This document shows, one piece after another, positions 3,220 through 44,744 of a stretch of 64,000 bases of DNA. The stretch spans positions 199,465-263,464 of the forward strand of contig CAYUQB010000001.1 of assembly GCA_964446735.1 (NCBI GenBank), in the 5' to 3' direction. Source of the DNA: an uncultured Candidatus Saccharibacteria bacterium. GTDB lineage: Bacteria; Patescibacteriota; Minisyncoccia; Phycocordibacterales; Phycocordibacteraceae. The notes under the pieces are model-generated. The model did not search any database. It was given only the letters and a program-made list of their open reading frames with translations, and was not told the origin of the DNA. The stretch's first letter is position 1. Every line of letters starts with the position of its first letter. A program made the translations under genes and the position numbers.

Positions 3220-4701
3220 ATGGCGTCGTCTCCCCGACCACCTATCGTGGCCGTCATGGGCCACATCGATCACGGGAAGTCCTCCCTGCTTGATTACATA
3301 CGCAAAAGCAATGTGACCGCTGGTGAAGCGGGTGGCATCACCCAGCACGTTTCTGCCTATGAAGCAGAGCATGAGCATGAAGGGGCGGTGCGCCGCATTA
3401 CGTTCCTCGACACCCCGGGCCATGAGGCGTTTCGAGCACTTCGAGCACGTGGTGCTGCAGTCGCCGATATTGCCATTCTCGTCATTGCCGCAGAAGAAGG
3501 CATTAAGCCACAGACTCTCGAAGCATTCAATGCAGCAAGTGAAGCGGGTACGCCAATCGTTGTTGCGTTTACGAAGATTGATAAGGCGGGTGCAGATGTG
3601 GAGCGTGCCAAAGTTTCAGCGCTTGAGCATGGCATCTATCTAGAAGGTCTTGGCGGCTCCATCGCATACACGGGTGTTTCCTCAAAATCAGGAGAAGGTG
3701 TTCCTGAGCTTCTTGACCTGGTACTGCTCACCGCTGACCTTGCGGAACTTACGGGAGATCCTCTCGCATCAGCAGAAGGATTTGTTCTTGAGTCTTCACA
3801 AGATCCGAAACAGGGACTCACCGCAACCCTCATCCTGAAGAACGGGACACTCGCAACTGGATCGTTTGTAGTTGCAGGAAGTGCGTACGCCCCGGTCCGC
3901 TTCATTGAAAACTTTGCAGGCAGTCGCATTCCTTCAGCCGGACCTTCCCAACCAGTACGCATTGCGGGGTGGAGTGAGCTTCCTTCCGCAGGCACACCGT
4001 TTACGGTTGTCGCAACGAAGAAGGACGCTGAGAAATTGGCGACCGAGGCGAATAAGTCAGTGCAGAAGCCGAACAGTGCCAGCATGACTGAAGATGGCAA
4101 AACGATGCTTCCGCTCATCGTAAAAGCTGATGTCTCTGGAAGTATCGAAGCGATCAAGCATGAGCTCGCAAAGATCGAGCATGAACGAGTCGCTATCCGC
4201 ATCATTTCAGAGGGCATCGGTGCGGTCTCCGAAGGAGATGTGAAGACCGCAGTCGCCGGAAATGGATTCATCATCGCGTTTAATGTCGGGACTGATGCAA
4301 CCGCACGTGATTTGGCGGAGCGTTCCGGTATCACGATTGATTCCTATACCATCATCTACGAGCTCAAGGAGCGCGTTGAGGAGTTGGTTACGCTTCGTGC
4401 TCCCAAGATCACGGTTGAAGAGACGCTCGGCGAGGCGAAGGTCCTCAAGACGTTCAATGCGTCTGGTGGTAAGGCGGTGTTGGGGGGTAAGTGGGTGTCG
4501 GGTCAGCTATCGGTAGGCGATCTGGTGAAGCTCGACCGCCGCGGGATTGATCTGGGGCGTGGCAGGATCACGAACATCCAGATGGCTCGTGCCGATGTGA
4601 AGGAACTGCATGTGGAAGGGGAATTCGGTATGCAGATTGAGACGAAAGCGGATATCGCGGGAGGCGACACCATCACAGCATTCCGCGTTATTGAAAATTA
4701 A
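3220..4701 (+). CDS. infB: Translation initiation factor IF-2 (minimal form, G-domain onward)
   Basis: MASSPRPPIVAVMGHIDHGKSSLLDYIRKS (G1), DTPGHEAF (G3) and TKIDK (G4) are present, followed by IF-2 C-domains. The track ORF begins at TTG 3199, and the first ATG is 3220. Confidence 0.85.
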   Translation: MASSPRPPIVAVMGHIDHGKSSLLDYIRKSNVTAGEAGGITQHVSAYEAEHEHEGAVRRITFLDTPGHEAFRALRARGAAVADIAILVIAAEEGIKPQTLEAFNAASEAGTPIVVAFTKIDKAGADVERAKVSALEHGIYLEGLGGSIAYTGVSSKSGEGVPELLDLVLLTADLAELTGDPLASAEGFVLESSQDPKQGLTATLILKNGTLATGSFVVAGSAYAPVRFIENFAGSRIPSAGPSQPVRIAGWSELPSAGTPFTVVATKKDAEKLATEANKSVQKPNSASMTEDGKTMLPLIVKADVSGSIEAIKHELAKIEHERVAIRIISEGIGAVSEGDVKTAVAGNGFIIAFNVGTDATARDLAERSGITIDSYTIIYELKERVEELVTLRAPKITVEETLGEAKVLKTFNASGGKAVLGGKWVSGQLSVGDLVKLDRRGIDLGRGRITNIQMARADVKELHVEGEFGMQIETKADIAGGDTITAFRVIEN

Positions 4702-10213: not shown

Positions 10214-10525
10214 CTAGCCTACTGGGATAAAGGAGAGGAGGAGCCGAACGATACCCCAGACCCCAAAGAGAACGATCATGCCAATCAAGCTCCAAAGCAC
10301 GAATGCCCTTCCTTTCTGTCGATTCTCCTCACCACCGGTAAAGAAATAGCGAAAGATGCCAAACAGAAAGAACAGGAAGGCGATGATATAGAGGAGAGGA
10401 ATAACTGCCCCATCCACAAACGCGACGATCCCATTGGGTCCATTTACGATCTGTTCGAAGGTCGGAGCAGCGTACGCCGGAAGGGCAATGAGTAACGTGA
10501 GAAATAGGAAAGCGAGACGTATCAT
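10214..10525 (-). CDS. T4SS-pilin-like (VirB2/TrbC-like) small membrane protein with signal peptide, paralog 4
   Basis: Signal peptide MIRLAFLFLTLLIALPAYA, then IPLLYIIAFLFFLFGIF..TGGEENRQKGRA..FVLWSLIGMIVLFGVWGIV. It overlaps the upstream gene by 4 nt (ATGA). Confidence 0.6.
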   Translation of the reverse strand: MIRLAFLFLTLLIALPAYAAPTFEQIVNGPNGIVAFVDGAVIPLLYIIAFLFFLFGIFRYFFTGGEENRQKGRAFVLWSLIGMIVLFGVWGIVRLLLSFIPVG

Positions 10526-11538
10526 AGGGTTTGGACCGTGGCGGCAATAACTTCACTGATCGCTTTAGCACCAAGAAGAATAAGTCCACCGATCACCGTC
10601 CACATAAGCGCGCTGCGCGCGGTCGACACTTTCTCGGGATTACCCTGCGCCGTCACAAAGAGGAATCCGACCCATACCAGCATAAACACGAGGAGAATTG
10701 CACCGAGCTGCACTACCGCATCAAGAATGGCGTTCAAGAGCTCAGGAAGCGAATCGAACTTGAGAGGATTCTGAAGCGTCCCACCTCCTCCACCCTGAGC
10801 ACCACCACTGGTAGCAGGGCCCTTACCTCCGTCCCCCAGGTTCTCATCACCACCCTTGCCACCGCCCCCAAGGCTTTCTGAAAGACCGAGCGCACTGAGT
10901 GTTGAGGAGCATACTGGTGTTGGCAGTGTGTAGGAATAGGTGGTCTTCGTAATCTTCGTACAGGAGGCAATGATCTTTGAGCTGCGGAGTGCCTTGATTT
11001 GCTCGGTGTATCCTGCCACCTTGGCCTTACATGCAGCTTCGGTGTCGTAAAGTTGTGCACCAACGAGGTAACATTCTTTCCCATCCGACTGCTTCTGCCA
11101 TCCTCCCCCCTCCAAGCTGTACTTATTGATCGCAGACGAGGAGAGCGTGCGGGTATAGGTGGCAGTGCCTGATGTGGTTTGAGTTGTCGCCGTACCTGAA
11201 GAAGAAAGCTTGAGTCCGTAGGTGCTGATCGATCCACTACATGCTGGGCCAGGCAATGTATATGTGTAGGAGGTCTTGGTGATTTGCCCACACTTATCTA
11301 TGAGCACGTTTTCCTTGTTGGCCTGTATTTTTGCAAGATACTCAGTACACGCAGTCTGCTCCTTAAATACATTTACGGAGAGGTTGTAGCACTTCGCCTG
11401 CTCGTTTAGGGTGCGGTACTCGACTGCGTACTGGTTCTGGTCCGCAATCTGGACGGTACGGGTGTAGATCTCCGCCTGTGCAGACGAAGGCACGAGCACG
11501 ACTGCTGCGAGAACGAGGAGTAGGGGAAGCGTACGCAT
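10522..11538 (-). CDS. Secreted tandem 4-Cys-module protein fused to a C-terminal T4SS-pilin-like hairpin, paralog 5
   Basis: Signal peptide MRTLPLLLVLAAVVLVPSSAQA. Two roughly 95-aa internal repeats follow (CYNLSV..CTEY..CGQITKTSYTYTLPGPACS and CYLVGA..CKAK..CTKITKTTYSYTLPTPVCS). Then comes a Gly-rich linker and LLVFMLVWVGFLFVTAQGNPEKVSTARSALMWTVIGGLILLGA. Confidence 0.6.
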   Translation of the reverse strand: MRTLPLLLVLAAVVLVPSSAQAEIYTRTVQIADQNQYAVEYRTLNEQAKCYNLSVNVFKEQTACTEYLAKIQANKENVLIDKCGQITKTSYTYTLPGPACSGSISTYGLKLSSSGTATTQTTSGTATYTRTLSSSAINKYSLEGGGWQKQSDGKECYLVGAQLYDTEAACKAKVAGYTEQIKALRSSKIIASCTKITKTTYSYTLPTPVCSSTLSALGLSESLGGGGKGGDENLGDGGKGPATSGGAQGGGGGTLQNPLKFDSLPELLNAILDAVVQLGAILLVFMLVWVGFLFVTAQGNPEKVSTARSALMWTVIGGLILLGAKAISEVIAATVQTL

Positions 11539-11541
11539 GGA

Positions 11542-12843
11542 TTACGGGAGTGCTGCCGAAAGTGATCCGTCAGCGTCGGTGATCGCGTCATGCACGGTCG
11601 CCCGCCCGCCGATGATGCTATGTATCATACCAGCGAAGATACGGTCGGTTACTGCCGGTGCTGGGGAGAGCCAGCCTTTGGCGATGAGTGCCTGAGAATT
11701 CACAATCGGCGCATAGGGATCGTCTGAACGGCTTGCAAGTGCGCTGCGAGCTGCGGGTGCGACACCAATCGCTCGCACGATGAATCCTGCGAGATTCTTC
11801 TCTGCAAGGGCCGCTGCGGTCTGGTATGCGCCCTCTGCGTTGTCACTTGCTTTAGGAATAGCGAACGCGTATACGACCCCGTACCCCACGCGCTCACTTG
11901 CCGTTTCCGGCTGAGGAACTGACGTCATGTCAAAGTCGAGATTTGGGTTTGCTGATGCAATGAGCGAACGCTCGGACGCGAACCCGATATACAGTGCCGA
12001 ATCCCCGGCAATGAAGCTCTGTCGTGCGTCGGTGATGGAACGGTTCCAGGTGTAGACAATTTTCGCGGGGTCAGCGAACTGGGTGTAGAAGCCGATTGCA
12101 GAATCTACCGTCGTGCCCCCAGAAGCGTTCTCGGCACCTTTTGAGAGCGTGGCGCGACTTCCTGACGGCGTATTCTCAACAATGGGATTCCCTGCTTGTA
12201 GGAGAAGCAGCGACACAATGGCACGTGCATTTGGAATATTGTCATAGGTACCAAGCGCAATCGCACTTTTCTCCACCACGCCAAAGGTGATCTTCTCGGT
12301 AAGTGACGGCGTCATACCGACCACTCCCTCCCACGTTTTAGGTGGCTGTGGAATGTTGGCACTGGCTAACCGTGATCGGTTGTAGAACAGTACCAATGGA
12401 TCAACGGCAATCGGTATGCCGTAGGTGCCGGAAGACGTCAGGAATAAGTAGGAGAGTGGGACGTAGGTATCGCGGAACGAACGCTCCGATAGTGTCGAGA
12501 ACGGAATGACCGACAACTTACTACGCTCGGTCACCAAGCGTTCTTGCGTGGTGATGATGAGATCAGGTCCTGCGCCTGATGCAATGGCTTCCGCGAGATC
12601 ACCATCGAAGTTCACCGGATCATGCTCCTGATAGATAAGTGCATTGAATTCCTGGCGCGTACGACGGAGCTCATCAAGTGCTGGCTGCACCGCACTATCC
12701 GGAAGCGTTCCCCAGATCACCACTTCGCCGATTGGTTTTGCTTGGCCGAATCCCTTGAAGAGCGCGAACGCGAGGATGCCCCCTAAGGCAGCGACGCCAA
12801 AGATCGAGATCACGATGATTTGGAACGGGCGCATGGTGGTCAT
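11542..12843 (-). CDS. Extracellular solute-binding protein (ABC transporter substrate-binding, family-1-like) with an N-terminal TM anchor
   Basis: 433 aa. An N-terminal TM helix is followed by a periplasmic-binding-protein-like fold (PDLIITTQERL..., YIGFASERSL). The family assignment is by overall pattern only. Confidence 0.5.
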   Translation of the reverse strand: MTTMRPFQIIVISIFGVAALGGILAFALFKGFGQAKPIGEVVIWGTLPDSAVQPALDELRRTRQEFNALIYQEHDPVNFDGDLAEAIASGAGPDLIITTQERLVTERSKLSVIPFSTLSERSFRDTYVPLSYLFLTSSGTYGIPIAVDPLVLFYNRSRLASANIPQPPKTWEGVVGMTPSLTEKITFGVVEKSAIALGTYDNIPNARAIVSLLLLQAGNPIVENTPSGSRATLSKGAENASGGTTVDSAIGFYTQFADPAKIVYTWNRSITDARQSFIAGDSALYIGFASERSLIASANPNLDFDMTSVPQPETASERVGYGVVYAFAIPKASDNAEGAYQTAAALAEKNLAGFIVRAIGVAPAARSALASRSDDPYAPIVNSQALIAKGWLSPAPAVTDRIFAGMIHSIIGGRATVHDAITDADGSLSAALP

Positions 12844-32175: not shown

Positions 32176-33099
32176 ATGCACGATCTCATCATCATCGGCG
32201 GGGGGCCGGCAGGTGTTTCTGCTGGTGTCTACGCAGCCCGCAAGCGTTTGAAGTCAGTCCTTATTGCCGAAGAAATAGGGGGTCAGTCTACCGTATCTGA
32301 AGGCGTCGAAAACTGGATTGGAACCATAAAGATACCGGGAGCAGAGATGGCAAAGGCATTTCGAGCGCATTTAGATGCATATAAAGGTGATGTCGTAGAG
32401 GTTGTTGAAGGAGATCGTGTTCAGAAGCTCGAGAAAGTTCCTGGAGGGTTTTCGGTTGCAACACGAGACGGTAAATCATTCTCTGCTCGTGCGGTCCTTA
32501 TCGCCTCCGGTGCTGCCCGCAAGAAACTCCAGGTGCCCGGTGCTGATACATATGAAAATAAGGGAGTAACATACTGCGCATCGTGCGATGGTCCCCTATT
32601 TGCTGATCAGGACGTTGCCGTTGTGGGGGGTGGTAATGCTGGCCTTGAAACCACTGCCCAGCTGCTTGCGTACTGTAAGTCGGTAACGCTCATCCACCGA
32701 CACGACAAGCTCAAGGGTGATGAGATAACCGTTGAGAAGCTCCTCGCCAATCCGAAACTTACCGTCCTCTATAAAACTGAACCGACCGAGGTACTGGGCG
32801 AAAAGTTTGTGACCGGATTGAAAACTAAGCATCGTGATACCGGTGAAGAAAAGACCCTTCCCGTCACGGGCGTATTTGTAGAAATAGGTGTGATGCCTAA
32901 TACCGACTTTGCCGCAGGGGTAGTTGAAATGGATGAGGTGAAGCGCATCAAAGCGGACGCTCGCAATCAACATACGAACGTGGAGGGCATTTGGGCTGCA
33001 GGCGACTGTACCGACGAGCTCTACCACCAGAACAACATTGCCGCAGGTGACGCAGTGAAGGCGCTTGAAGATATCTACCAGTGGCTCATGGCCCATTAA
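32176..33099 (+). CDS. trxB: Thioredoxin-disulfide reductase
   Basis: The FAD motif is IIIGGGPAGVSAGVYAA, the redox-active site is CASCDG, and the NADPH motif is VAVVGGGNAGLE. Confidence 0.9.
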   Translation: MHDLIIIGGGPAGVSAGVYAARKRLKSVLIAEEIGGQSTVSEGVENWIGTIKIPGAEMAKAFRAHLDAYKGDVVEVVEGDRVQKLEKVPGGFSVATRDGKSFSARAVLIASGAARKKLQVPGADTYENKGVTYCASCDGPLFADQDVAVVGGGNAGLETTAQLLAYCKSVTLIHRHDKLKGDEITVEKLLANPKLTVLYKTEPTEVLGEKFVTGLKTKHRDTGEEKTLPVTGVFVEIGVMPNTDFAAGVVEMDEVKRIKADARNQHTNVEGIWAAGDCTDELYHQNNIAAGDAVKALEDIYQWLMAH

Positions 33100-33136
33100 G
33101 TGCTACAGCCGCCGAGTTGACTCGGCGGCCGTTGCG

Positions 33137-33604
33137 TCATCCCACATGGGGAAAGGGCATGAAGGTGCCCGGACAGAGCGCTTCGATCCGTTTCTGGTAG
33201 GGACCGAACGGGTGGGTCACGAGAACCCGAAGCGCCTGACCGTGGAGCCGTTCTAGCTCCTCGTCGGTGAAGAGGAACCGGTGCGTGATGACGATCACCA
33301 CCAACGCTCCGTACTGACGAGCCAACTCGATCCCGTCGATGAGGTAGGAGTTGGCCGAAACCATCCGGTCGACGAAGACCGTGTGCATGCCCGCGACGTC
33401 AGTCAGACGAACGGGCACGAGATGGTTTCCCTCACGCCGCCACCCCGGCGTCCGAAACCACTTGCGCCAGAAGACTGCAGGCACATCGAACGGTTGGACG
33501 ATGCGTTCGATGTCTGAATAGTGGTCCTCTGCATTTGTGTCCGAGGAACAGATCGCCCGCGCGAGCCGGTAGCTCGCAGCCATACTGTCGAGTGCTTGGT
33601 ACAT
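33137..33604 (-). CDS. Hypothetical protein (about 155 aa) in a moderately GC-rich patch
   Basis: GGGGGA SD 7 nt upstream of ATG (MYQALDSMAASYRLARAICSS...). I recognise no domain. Confidence 0.4.
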   Translation of the reverse strand: MYQALDSMAASYRLARAICSSDTNAEDHYSDIERIVQPFDVPAVFWRKWFRTPGWRREGNHLVPVRLTDVAGMHTVFVDRMVSANSYLIDGIELARQYGALVVIVITHRFLFTDEELERLHGQALRVLVTHPFGPYQKRIEALCPGTFMPFPHVG

Positions 33605-33979
33605 GGTATTCCCCCACAATGGTGAACCAACCTGAGGGAACCATACCGCGCAGATACGGTAATAGCAAAACCGCCCGAACGGGCGGTCGTGCATACTCGG
33701 AAATGTCGAGTGAGGTTATGCAACCTCTTCCTCGCCAGTCTCCTCTGCGGGCATTTCGGGAGCGACCTCGGTCGTCTCCTCTTCAGGCATGGGACCAACA
33801 GTCTCCTGCTCGTCACCCATGACTGGATCATTCTGCATATCGTCCATAAACATTGTTTGGAGAACGGCATATTCTTCGCCTGAGCAAAAAATAAAGCCGT
33901 CCAATTACATTATTGGCTGGCAATCGACCTACCCCAAAAGTGTATCGTTCCGGTTATGGAAAAGCAATGAAGTCTTCAC

Positions 33980-35197
33980 CTACCCCTTCTCCACCATATC
34001 CCATATGAGGGCTGCAACGTTCCGTGGCTTCCCCTCGAACGGCAAATGATGATTATCAAAGAACGGCATGGAATTACACTCGATGATGCCGCACCGCTCC
34101 TGATCCTTCCAGGAGCGGGTAATGTCACCGATGATGAAATCAATACCGACGATAGGTGCCTGGAGGACCCGAGCCACCTCCTCGAAGAGTTCCCTAGTAT
34201 CTGGGTGTACATCGTCGGAGACATCCGCGGTCGTACCCCCTACGCTCCAATTGATTTTCTGATGGAGGGTCACGCGCTGGCCGTTTTCAGGAATACTTGT
34301 TGGAGTTAGTTTCTGCCAAGCGAGTTCCTTTTCTGCTGCGCGGTCGATGTGCATCGTATGGAAGTAGGGGCCCTGGCGTGCAGGATGACGGTTCGCGTCT
34401 TCGACGAGTTCCGTAATGGTATGGACCCCATCGCCGATCACGTGGGGCTGATCGCGACGGAGCGTCGCAGCAAGCTTTCCATCCACTACGGTCGCGCGGT
34501 ACACGGGACCGGTAAGTTCTTCTTCGATGACTGCTGCGGGGCAGATTTGCGTGGCGACCATAAACGCTCGCTTGAGTTCATCGAGGGTATCGATGTGAAG
34601 AAGGGTATGGCGTGAACCGGAACCTGAGTACGGCTTCACAATGACTGGAGGAGTGAGTTTTTGGTACAGACGTTTTGCTTCCCACCAGTTCTTGGCCGAC
34701 CCGCCTTGGGCGATAGGAAGATTGAGCTTTCGGAAGCGTTTCTTTAACTCTGCTTTGTCGTCAAGCCACGGTGCACGTTCAAGGGTCCGTGGCGGAAGCG
34801 GGATACCTTCGTATGCAACCTTTCGCCCGCTCGGATACGTTGCGACGAAAAGATTGCGGGGCAGATTAAAGAGACGGAACTCGTAGACCCTGATATTGCG
34901 CACATCAGCTTCCTGCCAAAGCATGAGCGCCAGAAGTTGTGTTCCCTCGTCAGGACGCTCGATACGTTTCGCCCACCCGAGTCGCATAAGGAACTCAAAA
35001 ATGTGTGGAGTGATCCTGCGCTCTACGGAATCGAACGCTCTCCCGAACCAACGACCGACGAAGCCAGGATCGAAGAGCTTCCGCATCGAGTCATCGAGGA
35101 GGATGGTGTAGTACGTCATCCGGTGAAATACCGGATCGCTTCCGCATTCTTCGCAGACCCGAGCCTTTGGAATCGGCATGCTACCCCTGCCAGCCAC
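33980..35197 (-). CDS. Cyanophycin-synthetase-like ATP-grasp protein (CphA N-terminal half; no Mur-ligase domain)
   Basis: VIVKPYSGSGSRHT, VIGDGVHTITELVEDANRHPARQ, INWSVGGTTADVSDDVHPD and IVGIDFIIGDI align to the CphA ATP-grasp region. Confidence 0.6.
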   Translation of the reverse strand: MAGRGSMPIPKARVCEECGSDPVFHRMTYYTILLDDSMRKLFDPGFVGRWFGRAFDSVERRITPHIFEFLMRLGWAKRIERPDEGTQLLALMLWQEADVRNIRVYEFRLFNLPRNLFVATYPSGRKVAYEGIPLPPRTLERAPWLDDKAELKKRFRKLNLPIAQGGSAKNWWEAKRLYQKLTPPVIVKPYSGSGSRHTLLHIDTLDELKRAFMVATQICPAAVIEEELTGPVYRATVVDGKLAATLRRDQPHVIGDGVHTITELVEDANRHPARQGPYFHTMHIDRAAEKELAWQKLTPTSIPENGQRVTLHQKINWSVGGTTADVSDDVHPDTRELFEEVARVLQAPIVGIDFIIGDITRSWKDQERCGIIECNSMPFFDNHHLPFEGKPRNVAALIWDMVEKG

Positions 35198-35492
35198 TTG
35201 TGGCGAGATCTACCCTATCGCCCCTGAATGCGACACCTTCCTGTATAAGGAGGCGCTTTTTTGTTGCTATGCCCTTACCGAAAGCATAGCCGGTGAGTGC
35301 ACCGTTTGAAGCAACGACACGATGACAGGGCACCTTACTCCGACTGGGATTACGCCGCATGGCGTTACCGACTGCGCGTGCTGCTCCGGGTCGTCCGGCA
35401 AGTGCTGCAAGTTTTCCGTATGTGGTTACCTTCCCTTTGGGAATCTTGCCGGCGAGCAGATAGATACGTGAAGTGAAATCAGACCCATTCAT
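35181..35492 (-). CDS. Methylated-DNA-protein-cysteine methyltransferase family protein (MGMT C-terminal domain only)
   Basis: The active-site motif is VPCHRVV, and the helix-turn-helix is TTYGKLAALAG. The start was set to MNGSDF. The stop is 17 nt downstream of the ATP-grasp gene's start codon (overlapping gene ends). Confidence 0.7.
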   Translation of the reverse strand: MNGSDFTSRIYLLAGKIPKGKVTTYGKLAALAGRPGAARAVGNAMRRNPSRSKVPCHRVVASNGALTGYAFGKGIATKKRLLIQEGVAFRGDRVDLATSGWQG

Positions 35493-35799
35493 GATGATAT
35501 TGTATCGGGGATTCGATATACGTTCAAAGTGACGCAATCGTTCACATAGAATCGAGCAGGGTCGATTATCGCTACTGCGTTACTACGCAGTAGCGAGACG
35601 GAAGTTGTGAGGGTTAGCCGACGAGCGGAGTGAAGTACGCGCCGAGGTAGTAGGGCCAGATAATAATCGCCAAGACCCCTTCCCAGAACGTGAGTTTAAG
35701 AAACCCAATGGTGAATAGCCATGCTGCAATCCATGCGCCACCAGAAAGCGTATGGTGCTCGATCTTTATTTTTTCCATGCTGAAAGTATAGCAAGGCAA

Positions 35800-35890
<91 letters not shown>

Positions 35891-35904
35891 TGATAGAACG
35901 TTCG

Positions 35905-36261
35905 CTATCCTAGCATTTTTAGACCCTTGAGACCACGATACCAAAGCACTGCACCTGACAGCGACATGCCGACAAAAAAGAAGAGCGTACCGATAATCCA
36001 GTGAACTGATTGGTCTGCGTAGGCGAGCACTGACAACCCTACAAGAAACGGGACTGCTGAAACAACGTGAGTCCAGAATATCCAATCATGAGGGACTCTG
36101 CCCCCAGACTGCACACGTCCTTCCATTGAGCCGACAGTGACGAGTGCAAAAACCCACGCGGCGAAATAGTGGGCAAGAACGAGCGTTACAGCTAGGCACA
36201 GCCAGGATATAAGGCCAAGTATGCTCAGAAAGACGTACCGAGAGCGGGTGTACCTCATCAC
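35905..36261 (-). CDS. Hypothetical 4-TM membrane protein
   Basis: 118 aa, hydrophobic, no motif. Confidence 0.45.
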   Translation of the reverse strand: MMRYTRSRYVFLSILGLISWLCLAVTLVLAHYFAAWVFALVTVGSMEGRVQSGGRVPHDWIFWTHVVSAVPFLVGLSVLAYADQSVHWIIGTLFFFVGMSLSGAVLWYRGLKGLKMLG

Positions 36262-42572: not shown

Positions 42573-44744
42573 ATGAACGATAAGTTCAAGCAGCCCTATG
42601 ACTTCGCGGCTACCGAGCCGCGTATTTATGAAGCCTGGGAACAGAGCGGGTATTTCAACCCGGATAACCTCCCTGGGGACCGACCTGAATCATTCACAGT
42701 TACCCTTCCTCCGCCGAATGTAACGGGTGTGCTCCACCTCGGGCACGCATACGAAGACTCGCTCCAGGACACGGTGGTCCGCTACCAACGTATGCGCGGA
42801 AAGAAAACCCTTTGGGTTCCTGGGACGGACTCTGCAGCAATTGCGACCCAGTCACGAGTCGAGAAGAACATTCAGAGAGATGAGGGAAAGAGCCGTCACG
42901 ACTTGGGACGCGATGAACTCGTGGCTCGGGTGAAGGAATTCGCTCGGGCAAGCGAGAGCACGATTCTCTCGCAAGTACGACGTATGGGAGCCTCACTTGA
43001 CTGGTCACGCTACGCATACACGCTCGATGAGGAGCGCACGAATGCCGTGAAGACCGCATTCATTCGTATGTATGAAGCTGGTCTTATTTATCGAGGCAAT
43101 CGTATCGTGAACTGGGATCCAAAGGGACAAACAACCATTTCGGATGATGAAATTGTGCACGAGGAGCGGCAGGCGAAACTCTATACCTTCCGCTACAGCA
43201 AAGACTTCCCCATCTCCGTTGCCACCACGCGTCTTGAGACAAAAGTTGGTGACGTTGCCGTTGCCGTGCATCCTGACGATCCTCGCTACAAGGAATTCAT
43301 CGGCAAAGAATACGATGCGGTGTTCGTAGATGTACCCATCCACATACAAGTGGTCGCTGATAAAGAAGTGGATCCCGAGTTCGGTACAGGAGCACTCGGG
43401 GTAACACCCGCGCATAGCATGATCGACTGGGAGATTGCCGAGCGACACAACCTCCCGAAAGATAAAATCGTAATCAACACCTACGCAAAGATGAGCGTCG
43501 AGGGCTCGCTCGCAGGTCTGAAAGCAACAGATGCCCGCGAAGCCGTAGCCGCGTGGCTCCGTTCCGAGGGTCTTATGGAGAAGGAGGAAGATATCTCACA
43601 AAATGTTGCGACTGCAGAGCGTACGGGAGGCATTATTGAGCCGTTGCCTCTGCTCCAGTGGTTCGTTGCGGTAGAAAAACCATTTGTTCTTCCTCACTCT
43701 GAAATAACGGGTATTGAGTCTGGCGCAACAGTCACTCTGAAACACATCATGCGTGCTGCAGTTGAACGTGGCGATGTCTCTATGCCCCAGGAGAATTTCC
43801 GTAAGACCTATATGCACTGGATTGAGAACCTCCATGATTGGTGTATCAGCCGCCAGATCTGGTTTGGTCATCGCATTCCAGTTTGGTACCGAGGGAACGA
43901 GATCCACTGCGGCGAGAGCGCTCCGGAAGGTGACGGATGGGAGCAGGACCCAGACGTACTTGATACATGGTTCTCTTCTGCACTCTGGACGTTCTCCACG
44001 CTTGGCTGGCCAAGAAAGTCAGAAGACCTCGCATCGTTCCATCCCACATCCTTCATGTCACCTGCGTATGAGATTCTCTCGCTCTGGGTCTCGCGCATGA
44101 TTCTTATGAGCGGCTTCCATCTTGGTCAGGTTCCCTTCCGCACCGTCATGATTCACGGTCTCGTGCGTGACAAGAAGGGACAGAAGTTTAGTAAGTCGCT
44201 TGGCAATGGAGCTGACCCACTCGAGATGATAGATAAGTACGGTACCGATGCGCTTCGTATGGGTCTGTTAGTCGGTACCGCTATTGGAAACGATATCCGC
44301 TTCGACGAGGACAAAGTGAAGGGCTATAAGCACTTTGCGAACAAGCTCTGGAACATTACGCGCTTCGTGCTCGAAAACACGGAAGGTGCAGATCCCCATG
44401 CAACGCTCACCGACGCAGACCAAGCGCTCAGAGCTGAGCTTGATGCATTGGCGAAAGACGTGACGACGGATCTCGATGCATACCGCATTTACCTTGCTGC
44501 GGAAAAGCTCTACCACTACGCATGGGATCGACTTGCGGCAGAAATTCTCGAGGAGTCAAAGTCGATCTTCCAAGGAGCGGATGCAGCTGCTATTGCTTCG
44601 CGCCACGCACTCCTCTTGTCTCTTCTTTCAGATACCGTAAAGCTCCTCCACCCATTCATGCCGTTTGTCACCGAAGAGATTTATCAGTCTCTTCCCACGA
44701 AATCGACTGACCTTCTTATGGTAGAGGCCTGGCCTGTTGCATAG
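42573..44744 (+). CDS. valS: Valine-tRNA ligase (short form without the C-terminal coiled-coil)
   Basis: PPPNVTGVLHLGHA carries the HIGH motif and KFSKSLGN is the KMSKS motif. An editing domain is also present. Confidence 0.9.
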   Translation: MNDKFKQPYDFAATEPRIYEAWEQSGYFNPDNLPGDRPESFTVTLPPPNVTGVLHLGHAYEDSLQDTVVRYQRMRGKKTLWVPGTDSAAIATQSRVEKNIQRDEGKSRHDLGRDELVARVKEFARASESTILSQVRRMGASLDWSRYAYTLDEERTNAVKTAFIRMYEAGLIYRGNRIVNWDPKGQTTISDDEIVHEERQAKLYTFRYSKDFPISVATTRLETKVGDVAVAVHPDDPRYKEFIGKEYDAVFVDVPIHIQVVADKEVDPEFGTGALGVTPAHSMIDWEIAERHNLPKDKIVINTYAKMSVEGSLAGLKATDAREAVAAWLRSEGLMEKEEDISQNVATAERTGGIIEPLPLLQWFVAVEKPFVLPHSEITGIESGATVTLKHIMRAAVERGDVSMPQENFRKTYMHWIENLHDWCISRQIWFGHRIPVWYRGNEIHCGESAPEGDGWEQDPDVLDTWFSSALWTFSTLGWPRKSEDLASFHPTSFMSPAYEILSLWVSRMILMSGFHLGQVPFRTVMIHGLVRDKKGQKFSKSLGNGADPLEMIDKYGTDALRMGLLVGTAIGNDIRFDEDKVKGYKHFANKLWNITRFVLENTEGADPHATLTDADQALRAELDALAKDVTTDLDAYRIYLAAEKLYHYAWDRLAAEILEESKSIFQGADAAAIASRHALLLSLLSDTVKLLHPFMPFVTEEIYQSLPTKSTDLLMVEAWPVA

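Follow-up and report, generated by a model that had tools for sequence, protein, structure and literature searches.

What is a protein that carries the ATP-grasp part of cyanophycin synthetase (CphA) and no Mur-ligase half, and does the MGMT-family gene directly in front of it have anything to do with its function? The question is raised by a locus in a 64,000-nt stretch of DNA (hereafter the window) from an uncultured Candidatus Saccharibacteria bacterium (GenBank assembly GCA_964446735.1, contig CAYUQB010000001.1, positions 199,465 to 263,464). Our analysis leaves little doubt that the protein belongs to a stand-alone family of ligases of the type found in the central (G) domain of CphA and in GshF, that it is not a cyanophycin synthetase, and that MGMT is an incidental neighbour. 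The neighbour of the ligase gene that recurs from genome to genome is a gene for an acidic mini-protein, not MGMT. The gene in question is:

33980..35179, minus strand: ATP-grasp carboxylate-amine ligase, 399 aa; extent set by homologue lengths, the longest open reading frame (ORF) reaching GTG 35197

The ligase family and its active site

The initial annotation had paired two ORFs overlapping by 17 nt, both of which exist: the longest ORF of the ligase (33980..35197, minus strand) encodes 405 aa, and that of MGMT (35181..35537, minus strand) 118 aa. The overlap itself does not hold. Our homologue search covered 5.8 billion proteins, and the best 120 of the 559 ligase homologues found are 379–432 aa long (mostly 394–413 aa) and 60–100% identical to the query. 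Because of these lengths, and because the NCBI protein 100% identical to the window ligase has 399 aa, we place the start at ATG 35179 (MPIPKARVCEECG...). The DNA at the junction reads ...TGG CAG GGG TAG c ATG CCG, i.e. the MGMT stop codon, one nucleotide and the ligase ATG; the two genes appeared to overlap because the first GTG, that of the longest ORF, had been chosen, and the real gap is 1 nt.

The kinship of the ligase with CphA, CphA2 and RimK was judged by profile bit scores. The strongest match is to the NCBIfam cyanophycin synthetase model PRK14016 (E-value 7.7e-63, 213 bits, cut-off 877), followed by TIGR02068 (E-value 8.8e-61, 206 bits, cut-off 850), and the motifs from which the likeness to CphA was first read (IGDGVHTITELV, NWSVGGTTADVSDDVHPD and GIDFIIGDI) are all present in the translation. 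The likeness is thus genuine, but it does not concern the N-terminal part of CphA, as had been supposed: the alignment pairs query residues 146–402 with CphA 212–471, which is the central G domain only. In CphA1, the N domain spans residues 1–161 and the MurE-like M domain residues 488–876, and the G domain comes together with the N domain (PMC9427784). Here, no search gave any HMM alignment before query residue ~132, and the protein ends at residue 399, where no M domain follows. GshF matches through its C-terminal ATP-grasp half alone (NCBIfam profile positions 487–750; 125 bits vs a cut-off of 425), and the NCBIfam model of N-acetylglutaminylglutamine synthetase scores 101 bits. A Pfam scan returned only sub-threshold ATP-grasp matches. 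The initial annotation had allowed that profiles might place the protein in RimK, GshB or D-Ala-D-Ala ligase (Ddl) instead; they do not, as is evident from the scores for RimK (TIGR00768, rimK_fam, 20 bits vs 143) and Ddl (PRK01372, 27 bits vs 243; Pfam Dala_Dala_lig_C and _N, 16 bits vs 24), while the LysX profile gives 16 bits vs 276. Among PDB sequences the ranking is CphA1 (2.5e-34 and weaker), CphA2 and GshF, with a weak match to a Ddl (8evy, E-value 1.5e-4). Neither the whole-protein score of curated CphA1, nor the CphA2 architecture (N, G and vestigial M domains, ~630 aa), nor that of GshF (a gamma-glutamylcysteine ligase half fused to an ATP-grasp half) is found in this protein.

A search with the ligase family profile against 1.84 billion representatives gave 9066 matches, 1711 of them below 1e-30. 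The top 150 of the 9066 all score at least 210 bits, above true CphA1 and CphA2 against the same profile (153–163 bits for the chains in the PDB), and most of them are ~400 aa long and align from a CxxCG motif to the C-terminus. Hundreds of homologues of 395–410 aa share this N-terminus and are 45–80% identical. The ~400-aa proteins split into several subfamilies with differing substrate-loop motifs; that of the window is marked by KINWSVGGT and NSMPFFDNHHLPFEG. Mean column identity in the ligase family is 67%, with no variation at all in long motifs such as SMPFFDNHHLPF. The nearest relatives of the ligase come from metagenome-assembled genomes (MAGs) of Patescibacteria (Paceibacterota/Parcubacteria), and the source-named members of the window subfamily are all from Patescibacteria MAGs, bar a few odd bin labels. 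In their sources the members are called "hypothetical protein", "cyanophycin synthetase" or "D-alanine-D-alanine ligase-like ATP-grasp enzyme", and we found no paper that describes the ligase family or the peptide discussed below. Judged by these alignments, the proteins make up a separate, large family outside any curated model, with a catalytic domain that is nearest to the CphA G domain and the GshF ATP-grasp half. The view of the window protein as a CphA that simply stops early is therefore abandoned, given its own conserved N-terminus, its 213 bits against a cut-off of 877 and its membership in this ~400-aa family. The absence of a Mur-ligase half was correctly noted: only ~880 nt separate the ligase stop codon from a convergent thioredoxin reductase (TrxR) gene, and no ORF of at least 330 aa in the window has a Mur-ligase Pfam match. 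Nor is a frameshifted Mur-ligase domain present downstream, and the gene is intact; a truncated or frameshifted cphA is rejected by the homologue lengths and the lack of room.

Residues 1–67 are specific to the family and contain an invariant C9-x2-C12-G13...H19 motif followed by two long helices. We modelled the protein with AlphaFold2 from 22 family members (pLDDT 80.6, pTM 0.79); the cysteine-histidine motif has low confidence. In this model ~55 more residues align structurally than by HMM, and we therefore infer that residues ~68–399 would make up a CphA-G/GshF-type ATP-grasp domain that is complete, comprising core, lid and omega insertion.

The ATP-grasp signature comprises a Lys in the pre-ATP-grasp linker, a Lys in the RAGNYA domain, an Asp in the kinase-like domain and an ExN motif (PMC4431377), and all four are present and invariant in the ligase as K142, K182, D347 and E367-x-N369. 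We took the roles of further residues from TeCphA1 (PMC9427784) and mapped them through ungapped HMM alignments:

K142: TeCphA1 K220, kept
K182: TeCphA1 K261, kept
R228: TeCphA1 R309, holder of the C-terminal carboxylate/acyl-phosphate, kept
R242: TeCphA1 R323, kept
N310: TeCphA1 N394, kept
D347: TeCphA1 D431, kept
E367/N369: TeCphA1 E450/N452, kept
G188 (or Ala): TeCphA1 P-loop H267, changed
F373: TeCphA1 G456, changed, Phe invariant
D375: TeCphA1 R458, changed, Asp invariant

All kept catalytic residues are invariant across the family. In CphA1, Asp is recognized by R323, N394 and R458, the last of which binds the alpha-carboxylate of the incoming Asp (PMC9427784). The ligase retains only the first two, as R242 and N310, and has D375 in place of R458. 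The alignment of D375 and F373 is ungapped between identical anchors (E..N..P and H..P..G), and position 375 is D or N in nearly all ~400-aa subfamilies. As far as residue conservation can tell, the phosphoryl-transfer machinery is intact and the nucleophile pocket has been rebuilt. Since the equivalent of R458 is an invariant Asp, aspartate is unlikely as the incoming substrate, and the synthesis of poly-Asp, which the initial annotation had offered as a possible activity, is likewise unlikely; the invariant F373 in place of G456 points the same way. A cationic amine would be a plausible incoming substrate.

Neighbours of the ligase gene

We compared the window with 80 loci taken from GTDB species representatives (81 loci in total; L numbers below denote individual loci) and clustered the ORFs of all of them. 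Among called genes, no consistent operon partner of the ligase emerged across the 81 loci. The partner that does recur has no annotation in the window:

33716..33853, minus strand: small acidic ORF, 45 aa (MFMDDMQNDPVMGDEQETVGPMPEEETTEVAPEMPAEETGEEEVA, followed by the stop codon), starting 126 nt after the ligase stop
33669..33688, minus strand: terminator-like hairpin (GACCGCCCG-TTCG-GGCGGTT, then TTTGC), found by a consensus scan and direct reading

The hairpin lies 27 nt past the stop codon of the small ORF and probably ends the transcription unit. An acidic ORF is present on the ligase strand near the ligase in ~46 of the 81 loci, so that roughly every second species sampled has the peptide gene together with the ligase gene. 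The equivalents are 31–57 aa long, start with M[DIMT]D[DE].., usually contain a P.EGEE stretch and end in [DE]E[EA]AA directly before the stop codon. Their start is usually ~60–220 nt past the ligase stop, as a rule ~120 nt; in L014, L035, L038 and L044 the acidic ORF lies directly upstream of the ligase instead, at a distance of 14 nt in L014 (1695–1814) and L035 (1005–1130). In L007, L019, L042 (7303–7416), L043 and the window it has remained beside the ligase with TrxR more than 500 nt away.

A generic detector of acidic ORFs (25–90 aa, D+E at least 28%, K+R+H at most 6%) gave exactly one match per positive locus and none elsewhere in ~0.8 Mb; the control loci (674 kb) and the 64-kb window yielded a single match each. 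When 35 unique sequences are compared, stops in the last 36 codons number 0 in frame, vs 45 and 98 in the two alternative frames. Nucleotide diversity at codon positions 1, 2 and 3 is 2.4, 4.2 and 4.8, and GAA/GAG and GCA/GCG/GCT vary synonymously. Substitutions between close peptide pairs (41/54/63 by codon position) are weakly coding-like, the stop-frame test being the stronger of the two. An Rfam scan of 33000–36000 found only tRNA; the small-ORF region is therefore no known RNA. Gene callers have recorded such peptides rarely, as three entries of 36–38 aa among the 5.8 billion proteins, where E-values are too strict for a low-complexity query of 40 aa. The acidic ORF is coding, conserved and positionally linked to the ligase.

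The DNA around the small ORF has features of its own. In the window (~33854–33980, minus strand) and in the equivalent place of other loci, a conserved hairpin with a U-rich loop is followed by GCCRTTCTCCAACACACT just before the ATG. The 3' end of the ORF, GCT GCA TAA, is nearly invariant, synonymous sites included (GCT in 33 of 35 sequences, TAA also in 33 of 35). Together these suggest an extra constraint at the RNA level.

The gene upstream of the ligase is accompanied by a promoter-like site:

35181..35492, minus strand: short MGMT-family gene, 103 aa, C-terminal DNA-binding/active-site domain only, PCHRV intact
35499..35527, minus strand: promoter-like TTGAAC-17-TACAAT, ending 6 nt before the MGMT ATG at 35492

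It was rightly recognized as encoding a true MGMT C-terminal domain with the PCHRV cysteine (PF01035, 105.5 bits vs 27; TIGR00589, 85 vs 46); the N-terminal domain is absent and the Ogt equivalog cut-off is missed (72 vs 192). The longest MGMT ORF begins at TTG 35537, but the real start is probably ATG 35492, because homologues have 102–105 aa and the promoter-like site ends 6 nt before it. If functional, this site would give a leaderless or very-short-leader MGMT-ligase transcript. MGMT lies directly upstream of the ligase on the same strand in 7 of the 81 loci, namely the window and L003–L008, its six nearest relatives (ligase identity at least 68%). A single independent event in ~80 loci is what chance placement would give for a single-copy gene within +/-5 kb in a ~1-Mb genome. 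As the adjacency is confined to one close clade, the pairing is lineage-specific: MGMT is an operon neighbour of this lineage and a translationally coupled passenger. The impression that the pairing has no obvious functional logic is borne out, and MGMT as a functional partner is rejected. Elsewhere, a short MGMT-domain gene follows a BshC-like gene (see below) in two related metagenome loci, L085 (6718–7044, plus strand; a Kerfeldbacteria genome) and L138 (+1700 from the BshC-like gene), a frequency within chance expectation. Upstream of MGMT in the window lies a tRNA-Ser(CGA) gene (35800–35889, minus strand); an ORF of 89 aa at 35614–35883 (minus strand, ...VRIPPSPP...) is a spurious reading of it.

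In 57 loci the wider arrangement is ligase -> <- TrxR <- FtsZ <- FtsA <- YbeY. In a divergent clade the convergent genes are RpoD-DnaG instead of the TrxR block. Various divergent genes are found upstream among the loci. A 185-aa ORF of the window (33137–33694, minus strand), whose start overlaps the terminator hairpin, weakly matches the C-terminal half of PRPP synthetase (E-value ~1e-4) and may be a degenerate Prs-like remnant; a full-length PRPP synthetase gene stands just after the ligase in L022, L056, L057 and L052, and PurF is beside it in L031 and L052. The window as a whole (G+C ~55%) encodes FtsA, FtsZ, TrxR, MurJ, GyrA, GroEL, several translation factors and 11 tRNAs, and a PADLOC scan found zero defence-system matches. 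Most of the window's genes have no Shine-Dalgarno sequence, and TAnnnT (-10-like) boxes stand 7–13 nt before their ATG, as at FtsZ (30322), TrxR (32176), MGMT (35492) and the starts at 42573 and 39546; this suggests that leaderless or very-short-leader mRNAs are widespread. Away from the ligase, a gene at 10522–11538 (minus strand) encodes a 338-aa protein with a C-terminal type IV secretion system pilin domain (PF18895, E-value 2e-12) and adjoins a gene for a solute-binding protein (11542–12843).

What the ligase may act on

LysX and ArgX activate the last-residue carboxylate of LysW and add an amine to it. The same holds for the G domains of CphA1 and CphA2, for GshF and for RimK: in each case the C-terminal carboxylate of a peptide or protein is activated and receives an amine (PMC9427784, PMC10375531). 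Since all these close characterised relatives act on C-terminal carboxylates, the adjacent, presumably disordered acidic mini-protein is the most economical candidate for a substrate. By homology, K142 and K182, together with the Mg ligands D347, E367 and N369, would clamp the ATP; the terminal carboxylate would be held by R228 and phosphorylated to an acyl-phosphate, and an amine, probably other than aspartate, would attack it with formation of an amide bond. The likeliest carboxylate is that of the C-terminus (...E-E-[E/A]-A-A-COO-) of the acidic 45-aa peptide whose gene starts 126 nt downstream, and the tail of this small protein could be extended or conjugated, as RimK does with S6 or LysX/ArgX with LysW. 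We consider a RimK/LysX-like role on the peptide's C-terminus to have a chance slightly below even, because part of the adjacency is simple synteny.

Several observations weigh against this assignment. In most loci the acidic ORF also adjoins the convergent TrxR gene within the conserved FtsA-FtsZ-TrxR-ligase block, so part of its closeness to the ligase is plain synteny, and in L003, L008 and L047 an insertion has left it by TrxR, 1–1.7 kb from the ligase. Loci with ligase identity of at most ~58% keep all active-site motifs and have no acidic ORF within +/-6 kb. The peptide ends in Ala-Ala, not in Glu as do LysW and S6. Finally, ligases for small molecules are fused to, or encoded in clusters with, members of paralogous subfamilies, which points to the synthesis of metabolites and away from the modification of proteins.

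The last point is the basis of the rival that survives best, which we regard as possible if on balance unlikely: that the ligase is a small-molecule peptide synthetase, extending a metabolite akin to a di- or tripeptide by an amino acid or amine in the manner of GshF (Gly onto gamma-Glu-Cys) and working with ligases encoded elsewhere, while the acidic ORF is an unrelated syntenic neighbour. Six representative clusters have an N-terminal, BshC-like domain of ~460 aa fused to a ligase of a sister subfamily; this domain has zero sequence matches in Pfam, NCBIfam or the PDB, its stand-alone form has ~500 aa and comes, wherever a source is named, from Patescibacteria bins. L089 has an operon of a BshC-like domain gene, a DapF/CntK-like racemase and an ATP-grasp paralogue; in L086 the BshC-like domain is fused to such a racemase, after GCS2 and an ATP-grasp of the L-amino-acid-ligase type; and in L001/L008 the BshC-like gene (~500 aa) abuts a window-type ligase. 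These associations support a role of those paralogues in the metabolism of a small peptide or thiol-like compound. For the window ligase they carry less weight, as the BshC-like gene stands beside a ligase of the family in only 3 of 80 loci collected around the BshC-like gene itself and beside the window subfamily in a single genome, and the 64-kb window has none. Moreover, a small-molecule synthetase leaves unexplained why several rearrangements have altered neither the place nor the strand of the acidic ORF with respect to the ligase. In two genomes a second ligase paralogue, ~30% identical, stands right beside the first (L042, 4659–5936, and L052, 7167–8438, both on the minus strand); the former adjoins a GNAT gene resembling arginyltransferase (ATE/Bpt; 3742–4662, plus strand; 48 bits, below cut-off).

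It is improbable that the ligase works on the cell wall, adding or joining residues on the peptidoglycan stem or cross-bridge like Ddl or ATP-grasp enzymes of the D-Asp-ligase type. The JGI label of its relatives ("D-alanine-D-alanine ligase-like"), the weak Ddl matches (27 bits; 8evy), MurJ in the window, the position beside ftsA and ftsZ and the arginyltransferase/Fem-like GNAT gene next to the L042 paralogue all speak for it, and a cationic amine, for example that of a Lys side chain, would fit the acidic residue of the nucleophile pocket. Yet the Ddl score is far below its cut-off (27 vs 243), no mur or ddl gene is adjacent in any of the 81 loci, and the ligase gene is convergent to TrxR-FtsZ-FtsA and therefore forms no operon with these genes.

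Still less likely, and in our opinion very improbable, is a minimal cyanophycin-type polymerase that would make poly-Asp or another homopolymer with the G domain alone. CphA is the best HMM match, the equivalents of R309, R323 and N394 are kept, and relatives of the RimK type can polymerise (PMC10375531); against this stand the replacement of R458 by an invariant Asp, of G456 by Phe and of the P-loop His267 by Gly/Ala, the missing N domain, which accompanies the G domain in CphA1 (PMC9427784), a score of 213 bits far below 877, and the window's ORFs of at least 330 aa, none of which matches a Mur-ligase Pfam family. We give hardly any credence to a decaying remnant of cphA or to a functional MGMT-ligase module, first impressions that a CphA-like core with no M domain and the tight packing of the genes (TAG-c-ATG) can create, in view of hundreds of homologues of the same length with 67% mean column identity and invariant long motifs, the lack of room downstream for an M domain, the restriction of the upstream MGMT to 7 of 81 loci in one clade, which is about what chance placement and inheritance would give, and the absence of PADLOC matches.

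Returning to the acidic peptide as the substrate, we suggest tentatively, and with more doubt than confidence, that some Patescibacteria possess an undescribed system of a ribosomal peptide and an ATP-grasp ligase, in which an acidic ...EEAA protein is activated at its C-terminus and joined to an amine. The amine could be a lysine of a target protein (a Pup-like tag), an amino acid (a tail as made by RimK or tubulin ligase) or part of a metabolite built on the peptide as a carrier (as on LysW). Patescibacteria account for a substantial part of bacterial diversity; their genomes are tiny, and most members are uncultured. A ligase kept in such genomes at 45–80% identity with long invariant motifs is therefore likely to matter to them. 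Proteins now labelled "cyanophycin synthetase", "D-Ala-D-Ala ligase-like" or "hypothetical" form a distinct family and probably do not make cyanophycin. If the peptide is the substrate, the pair would join the known cases of protein or peptide tailing, or of carrier chemistry, and would show that gene callers miss the partner systematically. The links of paralogues to a BshC-like ligase and a racemase, in turn, hint at an unexplored metabolism of small peptides or thiol cofactors in the phylum.

Comparison with known systems

The G domain of CphA1 (PDB 7LG5, 7LGM, 7LGN, 7WAC) is the best sequence match of the ligase (158–163 bits when PDB chains are scored with the family profile) and shares with it the ATP-grasp core with lid and an omega insertion of ~75 residues; the equivalents of K220, K261, R309, R323, N394, D431, E450 and N452 are all invariant. 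The ligase differs from CphA1 in having its own 67-residue N-terminus and neither the N domain nor the MurE-like M domain (399 aa vs ~875 aa), in the exchange of R458 for Asp, G456 for Phe and H267 for Gly/Ala, and in a score of about a quarter of the curated cut-off. CphA2 (7TA5, 8FXH) still has an N domain and, in vestigial form, an M domain, and its nucleophile loop reads PGVYMH, vs PFFDNH in the ligase. GshF (3LN6, 3LN7) carries a GshA-like N-terminal half and also has a different nucleophile loop.

The RimK-S6 and LysX/ArgX-LysW pairs, which resemble the proposed reaction, are more distant in sequence (rimK_fam, 20 vs 143 bits; LysX, 16 vs 276 bits), and the omega insertion of the ligase is of the CphA/GshF kind, absent from RimK and LysX. 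The acidic peptide differs from LysW in having no zinc-ribbon body, and from both S6 and LysW in ending with Ala-Ala rather than Glu; downstream pathway genes are not present. As for the neighbouring gene, Ogt and MGMT have the PF01035 domain and PCHRV cysteine in common with the 103-aa window protein, which is without the N-terminal domain of the Ogt/Ada type.

A comparison with Pup and PafA can be made by analogy only. PafA has the fold of glutamine synthetase whereas the ligase is an ATP-grasp enzyme, and the acidic peptide differs from Pup in having no GGQ/GGE end, with no depupylase, proteasome or target evident. What the two systems would have in common is a small, acidic and presumably disordered protein whose C-terminus could become an acyl-phosphate and be joined to an amine (PMC3511204), and the Asp in the nucleophile pocket of the ligase would suit a lysine side chain in that role.

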